A stretch of DNA of 64,000 nt from an uncultured Candidatus Binatia bacterium (lineage in GTDB: Bacteria > Desulfobacterota > Binatia > UBA9968 > JAJDTQ01), in the NCBI GenBank assembly GCA_965213675.1, contig OZ243916.1, positions 416,001-480,000 of the forward strand, given 5' to 3'. Made by a program: the position numbers and the translations under genes. The notes beneath the pieces were generated by a model. It saw nothing but the letters and a program-made list of their open reading frames with translations. It was not told the origin of the DNA and did not search any database. Shown piece after piece: positions 18,636-23,120 of the stretch (the first letter of the stretch is position 1; each line of letters starts with the position of its first letter).

Positions 18636-18758
18636 GCCGGCCTCCGCGCCCTTGGAGGCTGGACTGTCCGTTCGCCTGGAACGCAGCGGGACACAGCCGA
18701 AGGAGATCAGAACATCGCGTGGTCCCGAAGGGGGCCGATGCGACCCTTGGGGTGCGTG

Positions 18759-19931
18759 ATGTACGTGACGTTCCTCGAATGTGCGCGTTGCGGCATGGAG
18801 CATGAGCGCGGGAAGCTGCACAACCTGTGCCGGGAATGCGCCAGCCCGCTGCTGGTGCGCTACGACCTTGAGCAAGCGGGGCGGACCCTGACGCGCGCGA
18901 GCTTGCGGGAGCGGGTGGCAAGCCTTTGGCGCTATCGCGAGGTGCTGCCGGTGACCGACGGCGCCGCGGTCACTACGTTGGGGGAGGGGTGGACGCCGCT
19001 GGTACACGCCCGGCGGTTGGGTGATCGGCTGGGTATGAGCCGGCTGCTGCTCAAGGACGAGTCCTTGAACCCCACCGGCTCCTTCAAGGCCCGCGGCATG
19101 ACCGCGGCGGTGTCCATGGCCCGGGAACTGGGGGCGAAGCGCCTGGCCGTGCCGTCGGCGGGTAATGCCTCCGGAGCGCTGGCCGCTTACGCGGCGAAGG
19201 CAGGCCTGGAGGCGCACATCTACATGCCGCAGGACGCATCGCAGGTCAGCATCGTGGAATGCCGGCAATATGGCGCGGACGTGGTGCTCGTGGACGGCTT
19301 CATCAACGACTGCGGGCGCATCATCGGGGAGAACAAGGAGCGCGAGGGCTGGTTCGAGGTATCGACCCTGAAGGAGCCCTACCGGGTCGAGGGCAAGAAG
19401 ACCATGGCCTACGAGCTGGCCGAGCAGTTGGACTGGACGCTGCCGGACGTCGTGCTATACCCCACCGGCGGCGGCACCGGGCTCATCGGCATGTGGAAGG
19501 CCTTTGACGAGATGGAGGCACTGGGCTGGATCGATTCCCGGCGCCCGCGCATGGTCTCGGTCCAGGCCGAAGGCTGCGCGCCCATCGTCGAGGCATTTCA
19601 GGCAGGGGCGGACGAGGCGCAACCGGTGACGCGACCGGACACGGTGGCCGCCGGTCTCCGGGTACCCGTGGCCATCGGCGACTTCATGCTTCTGCGCATC
19701 CTGCGGGCGAGCGGCGGCTCGGCGGTGAGCGTGTCCGACGCTGAAATTCTGGAGGACGTGCGGGAGATCGGCGCCACCGAGGGCATCTTCGTGGCGCCAG
19801 AGAGTGCGGCCTGCCTCGCGGGCCTGCGCCGGTTGCTGGAGCGCGGCGCCGTGGACCCGGACGAGCGCGTGGTGCTGATGATTACCGGGTCCGGACTCAA
19901 ATACCCGCACTTGTGGAGCGAGTCTTCTTGA
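18759..19931 (+). CDS. thrC: Threonine synthase-family PLP enzyme
   Basis: N-terminal CxxC..CxxC, LGEGWTPL, NPTGSFKARG (PLP Lys), PSAGN, EGKKT, PTGGG. Confidence 0.88.
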   Translation: MYVTFLECARCGMEHERGKLHNLCRECASPLLVRYDLEQAGRTLTRASLRERVASLWRYREVLPVTDGAAVTTLGEGWTPLVHARRLGDRLGMSRLLLKDESLNPTGSFKARGMTAAVSMARELGAKRLAVPSAGNASGALAAYAAKAGLEAHIYMPQDASQVSIVECRQYGADVVLVDGFINDCGRIIGENKEREGWFEVSTLKEPYRVEGKKTMAYELAEQLDWTLPDVVLYPTGGGTGLIGMWKAFDEMEALGWIDSRRPRMVSVQAEGCAPIVEAFQAGADEAQPVTRPDTVAAGLRVPVAIGDFMLLRILRASGGSAVSVSDAEILEDVREIGATEGIFVAPESAACLAGLRRLLERGAVDPDERVVLMITGSGLKYPHLWSESS

Positions 19932-20027
19932 AGGCTCTTGCGGGCGTCCGCGGTGACGCCCGCAAGCGTGAAATGGCGGGTTCAGACCGGCCGGTCGGAT
20001 GACTTGGACCGGGGAGAGGATGACAAC

Positions 20028-20843
20028 GTGACGTCCATCGAGAAATGGCCCGATGATGCCAAGGTGGCGGTGCTGGTGACGCCGATGTTCGAAACCTGGT
20101 CGGTGGGCAAGGCGCCGTCCTATTCGCCCATGTCCTCGCCCCTCAAGCCGGGGGTGGTGGACCGGCTCGGGGTGTCCTGGTCGGAGTATGGCGGGCGCAC
20201 GGGCGTGTGGCGCTTCATGAAGATATTCCGGGAGTTCGAGGTGCCGGCCACGGTATGCGTGAGCGGGCGCTCGGCGGAGATGTTTCCCGAAGCGGTCCGG
20301 GCGCTGCATGACAACGGGCACGAGTTGGCAGGACACTCCTACACCCAGGACACCTTCCTCACCGATCTTTCCGCGGAGGAGGAGAAGGCGGTGATCGGGC
20401 GCTGCTTCGATCTCATCGAAGCGGTGGCCGGCGTGAGGCCGGTGGGCTGGCTGAGCCCCAGGGCGACGCCCACGGAGCACACCGCGGGGTTCCTGGCGGA
20501 AGCCGGTTGCGTCTGGCACGGCGATTACAACGACACCGATGTGCCCTACCGCATCGTTACCGGCGCGGGGGACATCGTGGCCATTCCCCACAGCGACTTT
20601 GCCGACAACCGGGTGCTGCGGGGCAGTCCGCGCGATTTCCTCAACGTCTACAAGGATACCTTCGACTTCCTGTACCGGTCCGACGCACCTGAGATGATCA
20701 ACCTCACCGTCCACGCGCACTTCGGCGGTCGCCCCATGATCGCCAGCATGCTGACCGAAATCCTCCGTTACATGAAGGGCTTCTCACGGGTCTGGTTCGC
20801 GCGCCACGACGAGGTGGCGCGCTGGATGTTGAAGCAAGGGTAG
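20028..20843 (+). CDS. Polysaccharide deacetylase (PuuE/allantoinase-like CE4) family protein
   Basis: WPDDAKVAV, EYGGRTGVWR, GHELAGHSYTQ, GWLSP, VWFARHDEVA. GTG start after GAGAGGA. Confidence 0.88.
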   Translation: MTSIEKWPDDAKVAVLVTPMFETWSVGKAPSYSPMSSPLKPGVVDRLGVSWSEYGGRTGVWRFMKIFREFEVPATVCVSGRSAEMFPEAVRALHDNGHELAGHSYTQDTFLTDLSAEEEKAVIGRCFDLIEAVAGVRPVGWLSPRATPTEHTAGFLAEAGCVWHGDYNDTDVPYRIVTGAGDIVAIPHSDFADNRVLRGSPRDFLNVYKDTFDFLYRSDAPEMINLTVHAHFGGRPMIASMLTEILRYMKGFSRVWFARHDEVARWMLKQG

Positions 20844-20934
20844 GACGTCCTCTGGCTGCCCGCTTTCCCGGAAATGGCACACTCGTGGGTCCGGTTTCCC
20901 TCTCCCAGCGCGTCGGCTCCAAGCCGACATGGGA

Positions 20935-20957
20935 GATTCCCGCGGAAGGCGGGAATC
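20935..20957. repeat. REP-like palindrome between convergent genes
   Basis: GATTCCCGC-GGAAG-GCGGGAATC perfect 9-bp stem. Confidence 0.6.
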
Positions 20958-21012
20958 CCGGGGCGCGCTGAGCCTGTCCTCGCTTCCAGCTTCTGCAACA
21001 TTGGGGTTTCAC

Positions 21013-21588
21013 TTACCCCAGCGGTATGTCCACGCCGTTGAGGGTCAGCTCCGGCACCACTTCCACGGGCCGCCGCAGCGTGTTGGTGGTGTAACAGGAG
21101 CGTTCCAGCGCCTCGGTGAACTCGACGATGCGCTCCTGACTGTCCGGACTTTGCAGATCGAGCCGATACACGAGCCGGGTGCACGCCGAGGGGACGTCCG
21201 ACAGCCCGAACTTGCCTTTCTGGTCGAACTCGCCGCGCACCGACATCTCCGCGCGCTCAATGCGGATTTCCATGAATGACGCCAACTGCGTCACTTGGCT
21301 GAGCATTCAGAAGCCGATGGACGCGATGAAATATTGCAGCGGGGCCGCGCCCTTGCCGGTGCCGCCGCGCGACTCTGGCTCGTCGCACAGGATGGTGTAA
21401 CCTTCCGACGTCCTGGCTTCCTTCAGGTGGTCGTTGACCAGGCGGATGCGCGCCTCATGCACTGTGACCGCCTTGGACGGATCCTCCCGGTAGACCTTCT
21501 GCCGCCGTTCGAATACGGCCTTGTGGCGCCGGTAGTCGATGGAGCAGCAGCCGGGATCGTCGAATTCCCGTTCTTCGTCAATGGCCAT
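21013..21588 (-). CDS. OsmC/Ohr-like protein, probable selenoprotein (Sec94 at UGA 21307-21309), 191 aa
   Basis: ORFs 21307-21588 and 21013-21306 are contiguous in one frame: DEPESRGGTGKGAAPLQYFIASIGF-UGA-MLSQ...ERSCYTTNTL. The UGA occupies the first conserved OsmC Cys position and a hairpin follows it. Confidence 0.85.
21275..21295 (-). promoter_or_regulatory. Putative bacterial SECIS hairpin
   Basis: On the mRNA: AGUGACGC-AGUUG-GCGUCAUU. The apical loop starts 19 nt after the UGA, with G at loop position 2. Confidence 0.7.
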
Positions 21589-21770
21589 GTTTCCTCCGTT
21601 TCCGTTGGCTGATCCCCGTTTCTTCCCTGGAATGGTTCCCGCATGTCAAGCCGCGGCGGCCACGATTGCTTCGGGCCTTCTAAACAACAGATGGGTTTTC
21701 GATTAGACTTGAGGGCGGGGGCGATGGCCCGGAACGCGCGCCTCACGAAATTTTCGAGTTCAGGGGACCC

Positions 21771-23120
21771 ATGCCACAAGACCTGAGAAGCTATCTGGAG
21801 TTGGTGGAATCCAGGGACGACCTGGTCCGCATCGCGGATCCCGTGGACCCGCGTTACGAAGTGAGCGCACTGGTGGCGAAACTGGCGCGGGTACGGCGCC
21901 GCCGGCCGGTGCTCCTCCTGGAGAACGTCAAGGGCAGCGCGTTCCCGGTGGTGACCAACCTCCATGCCGGCCGCCGGCGCATGGCATTGGCCATGAACAG
22001 CGAACCGCGGGACGTTCAGCGCGCGTTTCTGCGGGCCATGGAGCGCCCGGTGGCGCCCGTGGTGGTGGACAGCGGGCCGGTCAAGGATGTGGTGCATACG
22101 GGCGCCGGCGTGGACCTGCTGGCGCTGCCGCAGATCGTCCATCATGCCGCGGACGCCGGCCCCTACATCACCGCCGCCATCTCCTTCGCCCGGGACCCGG
22201 AGAACGGCGCCTGGAACTGCGCCTACAACCGCCTGATGATCATGGGGAAGGACCGCACGTCCATCCACATTACCGCGTCCAAGCACCTGTGGGAGTTCTA
22301 CCAGAAGGCGGAGGCCCGGGGGGAGGCGCTGCCCGTGGCCTTTGCCGTGGGCGTTCACCCCGCCATCGGTCTGGGCGCCCTGGCCATCGGCTCCATCGAC
22401 GAAGACGAGCGCGCCATCATGGGCGGTGTCCTGGGGGAGCCGCTGGAACTGGTGCGCTGCGAGACCTCGGACCTGCTGGCGCCGGCCCACGCCGAGATGA
22501 TCCTGGAAGGGGAGATTCTTCCCGGTGAGCGCACTCCCGAGGGGCCGTTCAGCGAGTTCACGGGCTACAGCCTTGGGGAGCGCCAGCGCGAGGTGGTGCG
22601 CTACCACGCCGTGACCATGCGCGAAGGAGCGCTGTTCCACGACATCTCCGTGGCCCAGGTGGACCATCTGCTGCTGTCCACCATTCCCATGGAAGCCAAC
22701 CTCTACCGCGCCGTGCGCGCCATGGTTCCCTCTGTGACCGCGGTGCGCGTGCCCGCGCCCTACAGTTGCTACGTCGCCATCGAACAGCGCGTCTCCGGCC
22801 AGGCCAAGAACGCCATCCTGGCGGTGCTGGGCGCAGACATGTACATCAAGCGCGTGGTGGTGGTGGACCACGACGTCAACATCTTCGACGACCGCGAAGT
22901 AGCCTGGGCCCTGGGCACCCGCTGCCAGGCGGACCGCGACATCACGGTGATCTCCAATACCCGCGGCTCCGACCTCGACCCGTCCACCGACTCGGACGGC
23001 CACACCGCCAAGTGGGGCATCGACGCCACCGCCAAGCCCTCCCTGGCCGCGTACACGCCGCGAAACCGCATCCCGCGGGACGTGCTGGAAGGCATCGACC
23101 TGGACAAGCTGGGGCTCTGA
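21771..23120 (+). CDS. UbiD-family (prFMN-dependent) decarboxylase
   Basis: DLRSYL, DAGPYIT, YNR, EGPFSE, VVVVDHDVNI, WALGTR, LDPS, KWGIDAT. Confidence 0.93.
   Translation: MPQDLRSYLELVESRDDLVRIADPVDPRYEVSALVAKLARVRRRRPVLLLENVKGSAFPVVTNLHAGRRRMALAMNSEPRDVQRAFLRAMERPVAPVVVDSGPVKDVVHTGAGVDLLALPQIVHHAADAGPYITAAISFARDPENGAWNCAYNRLMIMGKDRTSIHITASKHLWEFYQKAEARGEALPVAFAVGVHPAIGLGALAIGSIDEDERAIMGGVLGEPLELVRCETSDLLAPAHAEMILEGEILPGERTPEGPFSEFTGYSLGERQREVVRYHAVTMREGALFHDISVAQVDHLLLSTIPMEANLYRAVRAMVPSVTAVRVPAPYSCYVAIEQRVSGQAKNAILAVLGADMYIKRVVVVDHDVNIFDDREVAWALGTRCQADRDITVISNTRGSDLDPSTDSDGHTAKWGIDATAKPSLAAYTPRNRIPRDVLEGIDLDKLGL

Follow-up and report, generated by a model that had tools for sequence, protein, structure and literature searches.

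OsmC-like selenoproteins were reported from the Sargasso Sea metagenome by Zhang, Fomenko & Gladyshev (2005; PMC1088965), whose report, in the excerpts consulted here, describes three sequences assigned to COG1765 with the motif UxxT and includes a SECIS figure. The family is also listed with this motif in the relevant passages of a review from 2022 (PMC9312934) and of another from 2026 (PMC13188914). A sequence-only reading of the locus described below had termed such proteins known from metagenomes but poorly characterised; the first part of this stands, whereas the second understates a family that has the curated model NF041052 and a place in the 2022 and 2026 reviews. In a literature search with subscription journals largely outside its coverage, neither a functional study of OsmC-like selenoproteins nor anything relevant on selenocysteine (Sec) in Binatia was found. 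As OsmC-like selenoproteins have been published since 2005 and are covered by a curated model, the protein presented here is largely an ordinary find, and the new points are modest ones: a distinct clade, the motif UxxS, an N-terminal Cys-Cys motif and the presence of the protein in public sets as truncated halves.

The window that was analysed comprises 64,000 nucleotides of contig OZ243916.1 (positions 416,001 to 480,000; assembly GCA_965213675.1) from an uncultured Candidatus Binatia bacterium. Its predicted selenoprotein shares with the published family, as far as the excerpts of PMC1088965 describe it, the OsmC fold, Sec at the first conserved Cys, the occurrence of Cys homologues and a SECIS directly downstream with a G in a small apical loop. 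The published OsmC-like selenoproteins carry UxxT in these excerpts, as does a paralogue class termed class A below, whereas the copy in the window has UxxS together with the Cys-Cys motif. The sources differ as well, with Candidatus Binatia MAGs here and marine plankton for the published family in the same excerpts.

One reading frame across an in-frame UGA

On the minus strand, at 21588..21013, an ORF of 93 aa (21307..21588) ending in ...LQYFIASIGF and an ORF of 97 aa (21013..21306) starting with MLSQVTQL... abut in frame, with a single TGA (21309-21307) between them. When this TGA is read through, a complete 191-aa OsmC-like protein results (21013..21588, minus strand; ATG at 21588-21586, TAA stop at 21015-21013), which contains U94, CDEPESRGGTGKGAAP and the segment ERSCYTTNTL. 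A Shine-Dalgarno sequence GGAGG (21593..21597, minus strand) lies 4 nt 5' of the ATG and is likewise found ahead of the corresponding start codon in most orthologues. The in-frame UGA (21307..21309, minus strand), read as Sec94, stands where OsmC-family proteins have their first conserved Cys, the peroxidatic one, and Cys165 (TGT, 21094..21096, minus strand), an invariant alignment column, stands where they have the second, resolving Cys. Near the N-terminus, Cys14-Cys15 (21544..21549, minus strand) form part of the motif GCCSIDYRRHK, which is specific to the clade of the window's protein. The Pfam OsmC model PF02566 matches residues 76-177 with 53 bits (cut-off 27.5) and thus spans the TGA, and the NCBIfam model NF041052, named "OsmC-related (seleno)protein", scores 135.2 bits on the read-through protein (cut-off 95) and 126.9 bits for the gene in a six-frame search of the genome. 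The locus is, judged from its sequence, one 191-aa selenoprotein gene, which standard gene prediction splits at the UGA; the two abutting in-frame ORFs and the 191-aa read-through product with its second Cys, claimed in the earlier reading with no strand named, are borne out as U94 and C165 on the minus strand.

The codon opposite U94 in homologues

NF041052 was searched in the genome of the window and in 60 relatives (61 genomes), and members over the cut-off were detected in 58 of the 61, mostly several in each. Among the matches listed over the cut-off, all but seven stop-free ones have an in-frame TGA, and three have a second stop in addition. For the alignment, 67 loci were used, namely the 31 best-scoring matches and 36 picked by class from the listed matches, and 60 of them had TGA opposite U94, whereas the remaining seven, which are all of the stop-free forms, had TGC or TGT there, with neither Trp nor any other non-Cys residue at this place in the 67 loci. 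The surrounding motif is YF.AS.GF[U/C]M.SQ. The suggestion that homologues be checked for Cys or UGA at position 94 has hence given a uniform answer, with TGC/TGT in 7/7 stop-free forms and TGA in 60/60 others.

A plain reading would be that the TGA terminates translation and that the locus is a pseudogene or two independent small ORFs. This might be suggested by the ATG directly 3' of the TGA, which opens the second ORF, and by the public protein sets, in which the clade of the window's protein has no full-length member and is represented just by pieces of 105-110 aa (83-95% identity), next to Cys-type proteins of 181-182 aa (33-39% identity). However, each half would be half of an OsmC domain, with the Pfam match running across the TGA, and other classes have CTG or CTC, not ATG, as the codon following the TGA. 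Moreover, TGA, frame and 3' hairpin are kept in all 60 TGA-bearing loci (source genome set of 14 genera), and the stop-free homologues have Cys at the site. Termination at this TGA is consequently regarded as very improbable.

Selenocysteine machinery, genetic code and assembly

The genome is a Candidatus Binatia MAG of 4.53 Mb in 21 contigs, 97.7% complete with an estimated contamination of 8%. Outside the window, selA (592.7 bits), selB (378.6 bits) and selD (377.3 bits) lie adjacent at C1:2713784-2718389 (loci L001, L002 and L010), all over the curated cut-offs, and a tRNA-Sec over its cut-off (75.2 bits) is present in two copies at C1:323217-323307 and C4:3174-3264 (L014 and L015). The Sec machinery that the earlier reading had proposed to look for is thus present throughout, with selA, selB, selD and tRNA-Sec above curated cut-offs. 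The two equally scoring tRNA-Sec copies may be due to a genuine gene duplication, to a contig present twice or to contamination. As a separate observation, SelD too is a selenoprotein, its gene having one in-frame TGA in the context AAGUAAKLGP, with a 3' hairpin GUGCAG/CUGCAC and the loop GUC.

A genome-wide reassignment of TGA to Trp or Gly (NCBI tables 4 and 25) would also allow read-through, and no support for it was found. TGA ends 27 of the 45 high-GC3 ORFs of at least 300 aa in the window, both flanking genes included, and is the commonest stop; in addition, homologues have Cys at the site and never Trp or Gly, and the Sec machinery of the genome is complete. Reassignment was therefore ruled out as far as such ORF statistics allow, and it is the least probable of all readings considered.

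Since the source genome is a MAG with an estimated contamination of 8%, it could further be asked if sequencing or assembly went wrong at the TGA, or if the codon is a TGC/TGT that varies between strains. Against this, TGA stands at the aligned codon in 22 further assemblies of the same genus and in three orthologues outside the genus. Contigs of four public runs from two studies also cover 21307-21309, and none of the differences listed for them falls there (45 lesser differences lie outside those listed; several contigs have 0 differences, and three of the four runs may represent the source sample). The earlier reading had named TGC or TGT in reads as a sign of error, and at these three positions none was found among the differences listed for contigs of the four runs. 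An error or strain variant is accordingly given hardly any weight, less than termination at the TGA.

A conserved hairpin downstream of the UGA

In bacteria, Sec insertion depends on a SECIS directly 3' of the UGA, which is bound by SelB together with Sec-tRNA(Sec). From RNA folding, comparison and third-position entropy, a SECIS element is predicted at 21270..21298 (minus strand). It consists of an 8-bp stem AGUGACGC/GCGUCAUU with one G-U pair (arms 21295-21288 and 21282-21275), the apical loop AGUUG (21287-21283) and, below this stem and a 2-nt bulge, a 3-bp lower stem CCA/UGG, by which the structure reaches 21298-21270. Folding of the RNA thereby recovers the hairpin of 8 bp with an AGUUG loop 19 nt past the UGA that had been noticed from the letters. 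Folding of the single 63-nt segment gave no excess over shuffled sequences (z = -0.79; 34 of 200 shuffles fold as well), and comparative tests were therefore used for the hairpin.

The 67 loci yielded 40 distinct 48-nt segments counted from the codon (33 with TGA and seven with Cys; the U of UGA is nt 1). A hairpin of at least 6 bp with a 5' arm starting at nt 15-19 was present in all 33 distinct TGA-bearing segments, and G24-U25 lay within the apical loop in 31 of these, the two exceptions having a GCUU loop. The stems themselves read GUGACGC/GCGUCAU in the clade of the window's protein, UUUCCC/GGGAAA in class A, CUGACGCG/CGCGUCAG in L087/L088 and AGCGACG/CGUCGCU in L078/L086; stem sequences thus differ by class, whereas the hairpin structure is preserved. 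None of the seven Cys forms has GU at nt 24-25, and six of them form stems of only 3-5 bp; one Cys form has an 8-bp stem, which is located elsewhere (nt 21-40). The MFE alone fails to separate Sec from Cys forms, as one Cys form reaches -14.1 kcal/mol. A second line of comparison comes from synonymous variation in 23 orthologues, which belong to one genus and are therefore not independent: the third-codon-position entropy has a mean of 0.575 over the gene and its minimum of 0.188 at codons -2..+9, where the third position varies in just 4 of 12 codons, and this minimum coincides with the hairpin.

The bSECIS model, as given in the legend of Fig. 2 of PMC13188914, allows 3-9 nt in the loop and 4-16 bp in the stem, and asks for an MFE of at most -7.5 kcal/mol, a G at loop position 1 or 2 that is mostly followed by G or U, and a spacing between UGA and loop of 16-37 nt. 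The hairpin in the window agrees with all four constraints of this model, with a loop of 5 nt and a stem of 8 bp, G2-U3 in the loop, a spacing of 19 nt and an MFE of -13.1 kcal/mol (nt 11-45). An Rfam scan of 21150-21400 (E <= 10) returned no SECIS family and just a chance-level match to Glutamine-II (12 bits vs 33). The claim of a SECIS-like hairpin is upheld in that the structure fits the published bacterial model and keeps the same register in 33/33 distinct TGA forms, and the comparative data support its assignment as a SECIS directing Sec insertion at UGA94. From these sequence comparisons, we consider it nearly certain that UGA94 is decoded as Sec.

Fold and redox residues

Ohr/OsmC proteins use their first Cys as the peroxidatic and their second as the resolving residue, with a catalytic Arg and Glu near the former; lipoyl proteins serve as reductants, and homodimerisation is textbook for the fold. 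An AlphaFold2 model of the window's protein from an alignment of 23 sequences has a mean pLDDT of 85.6, with residues 1-13 below 50, and places residue 94 within a long helix (83-105) and Cys165 where the helices 151-164 and 166-172 join. Foldseek against the PDB led to 62 matches at E <= 0.001, headed by 1lql, 3cje and many Ohr/OsmC structures, and the alignment profile matches 3cje at E 1.3e-17 with both Cys aligned. The profile alignment places U94 opposite the first of the two conserved Cys in 3cje, 2opl, 9wo1, 1lql and 1vla, and C165 falls opposite the second one in 3cje, 9wo1, 1lql and 1vla, 2opl having only the first.

The closest solved structure by profile is thus Jann_2040 from Jannaschia sp. 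CCS1 (3cje), which is also the second-best fold match (TM 0.71 normalised by the target; 18% identity in the fold alignment) and has C..TQ where U..SQ is found here. It differs in having Cys in place of Sec and a length of 167 aa, and its aligned part is without the CC-bearing N-terminus. Both 3cje and 2opl, the closest solved relatives, come from structural genomics, and no assay is mentioned in their titles. With the Ohr/OsmC hydroperoxide reductases (1n2f, 6ebg, 1qwi and 1vla), the window's protein has the fold in common and, by position, the redox residue pair (1vla), and among the PDB titles is that of an Ohr interacting with dihydrolipoamide. For the subfamily of 1lql, hydroperoxide reductase activity is reported from Mycoplasma.

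The differences from Ohr/OsmC are the replacement of the peroxidatic Cys by Sec, the absence of an invariant Arg or Glu and a score below the cut-off of the Ohr equivalog. Over 23 family members of all classes, invariant columns are only M1, D69, P83, Y86, U/C94, Q98 and C165, and no column has an invariant Arg or Glu; the Ohr equivalog NF052637 gives 18.2 bits against its cut-off of 240. The protein is, to judge by fold, residue and profile comparisons, one that resembles Ohr/OsmC peroxidases yet lies outside the Ohr equivalog.

A distinct clade with an N-terminal Cys-Cys motif

Close relatives with 85-94% identity occur in 18 MAG records titled Candidatus Binatia, Deltaproteobacteria, Thermodesulfobacteriota or Syntrophobacterales bacterium, and a sample of 300 further genomes from this phylum (201 genera) gave a single match at E <= 1e-20, which is 43% identical and has TGA too. 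The copy in the window belongs to a distinct clade that is mostly confined to its own order. Proteins of this clade are 189-191 aa long and have Sec at residues 92-94, whereas class A has 161 aa with Sec62 in the same-genus orthologues and the Cys forms have 182 aa. A class A protein is also the second OsmC-like selenoprotein of the genome (L022, C1:3453001-3453423, 176 bits, ULLT). Counted from its own first in-frame ATG, L022 would have its Sec76 in a protein of 175 aa; the SECIS of L022 has the stem UUUCCC/GGGAAA and the loop GGUACG, and class A was observed in 27/27 same-genus genomes searched. After Sec, the clade of the window's protein has UMLS (UxxS), whereas class A has UxxT, and the NF041052 score is 127-135 bits for the window's copy vs about 176 for class A.

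The window's copy is N-terminally about 30 aa longer than class A. Its motif CC[S/T/A]IDY..HK near the N-terminus is kept in 26/26 clade orthologues (23 within the genus and three outside; three taxonomic families), and adjacent Cys upstream of the Sec/Cys site were found in 0/41 other family members examined. In the model, Cys14-Cys15 adjoin the N-terminal residues 1-13 of low confidence. The former description of an unusual N-terminal extension (GCCS) can thus be kept for the Cys-Cys motif, which is clade-specific, but not for the extension itself, as the Cys types of 182 aa share one.

Independently of the classification, small shares of the stretch's words are present in many sponge-metagenome runs (X5-X21, 12 studies), and contigs of X5 are 85-99% similar to parts of the gene, among them the segment with TGA and hairpin. 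No RNA data set is listed among the public runs, which has no bearing on expression of the gene. Relatives of the window's organism probably live in sponges.

Genomic neighbourhood and 3' region

On the plus strand, the gene is flanked by a divergent UbiD-family decarboxylase gene (21771-23120), a gene for a polysaccharide-deacetylase-domain protein (19938-20843) and one for a PLP-dependent (PALP) enzyme (18738-19931), which are syntenic in 18/18, 16/18 and 15/18 same-genus loci respectively, where all 18 loci represent one genus and the misses include loci ended by contig ends. Outside the genus, the deacetylase neighbour is kept in two loci, and UbiD is absent in L107, the sole locus with enough flank, two loci being too short upstream. 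Neighbours of L107 and of the paralogue L022 are a metallo-beta-lactamase-fold protein, a solute-binding protein or proteins with no Pfam match. As no functional hint remained outside the genus, the neighbourhood was rejected as a clue to function.

The 3' untranslated region (20900..21012, minus strand) has strong hairpins (MFE -55.5 kcal/mol, z -2.79), among them an 11-bp hairpin GGGAUUCCCGC/GCGGGAAUCUC without a U-tract, and these may be a terminator or part of a repeat element. A consensus scan of 20700-21900 for promoters and terminators gave no promoter and no terminator in 20900..21012; its one terminator-like site lies inside the coding region and is at chance level. Just 3' of the gene, the 38 nt at 20973-21010 have a second copy in the genome (C1:1118784-1118821, three mismatches) and match several unrelated contigs with raised depth in runs X1-X3. 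This segment looks like a small dispersed intergenic repeat.

Possible catalytic role

At UGA94, the hairpin beginning 11-14 nt downstream would be bound by SelB with Sec-tRNA(Sec), so that Sec would be inserted and no termination would take place. The product would be a redox protein of the OsmC fold, most likely a homodimer like the solved relatives. By analogy with the family, the selenolate of Sec94 would attack a hydroperoxide to give a selenenic acid, which Cys165 may resolve to a selenenylsulfide, and a thiol donor would then re-reduce the enzyme, be it a lipoyl protein, a thioredoxin-type protein or possibly Cys14-Cys15 of the clade. For the statement as a whole, namely that the UGA is read as Sec and that the protein has a redox role at Sec94/Cys165, we estimate a probability of roughly 0.85. 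The least secure step is the peroxide and thiol chemistry, which is taken over from the family by analogy and against which the missing invariant Arg/Glu and the Ohr equivalog score (18 bits vs 240) have to be counted.

Alternatively, the protein may be a real selenoprotein but not a peroxidase, with Sec94/Cys165 and the flexible Cys14-Cys15 (and His22) handling another substrate such as a persulfide or polysulfide, a disulfide, or a soft metal or metalloid, and with the vicinal Cys as a relay or binding arm. Such a function would be in line with the family alignment, in which Arg and Glu are not invariant, and with the CC motif in all 26 orthologues from three taxonomic families. It could also be indicated by Gln98, four residues after Sec, which is invariant and not tied to Ohr/OsmC chemistry. 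In the excerpts of the original report, the assignment is to COG1765 as a 'predicted redox protein' (PMC1088965). Nevertheless, the fold and both redox residues match the OsmC/Ohr hydroperoxide reductases, to which the activity reported from Mycoplasma for the 1lql subfamily can be added, and neighbours from metal or sulfur metabolism were not seen at the loci examined. A non-peroxidase function is thus a minority reading, though one with a real share of the probability, and the peroxidatic role of Sec94 with Cys165 as resolving residue is preferred.

A bolder proposal, which we regard as speculative and less probable still than the non-peroxidase function, would be that the clade represents a three-centre selenoenzyme, in which the Cys14-Cys15 arm might act as a redox relay or in soft-metal or metalloid hand-over to Sec94-Cys165 of the same or the partner subunit. 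Redox tails with adjacent Cys or Sec are known from thioredoxin reductase (GCUG, and SCCS in insects), and mercuric reductase has a C-terminal Cys-Cys. These tails likewise have an adjacent Cys pair on a predicted flexible segment with a separate buried redox centre, as GCCS would have here. In contrast to them, the GCCS arm is N- and not C-terminal and belongs to an unrelated fold, and a redox role of the pair or its reach to the Sec site would be a proposal by analogy. If true, a three-centre OsmC-fold protein would be independent of lipoyl-protein reductants or would act on a substrate other than peroxide.

Implications for the family and its hosts

The current understanding of Sec decoding is unchanged by the selenoprotein of the window. 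For annotation, the protein and about 25 orthologues are public as truncated halves, and part of the redox equipment of an uncultured lineage is therefore under-reported. Nearly every genome searched in the order of the window's organism has one to several genes for Sec-containing OsmC-like proteins among the matches listed. The paralogue classes, with the same Sec site and different SECIS stems, and the hairpin-free Cys forms together provide a natural series for the co-evolution of SECIS and protein, and the Cys-Cys arm found in the window's clade offers biochemistry a definite lead that can be tested.
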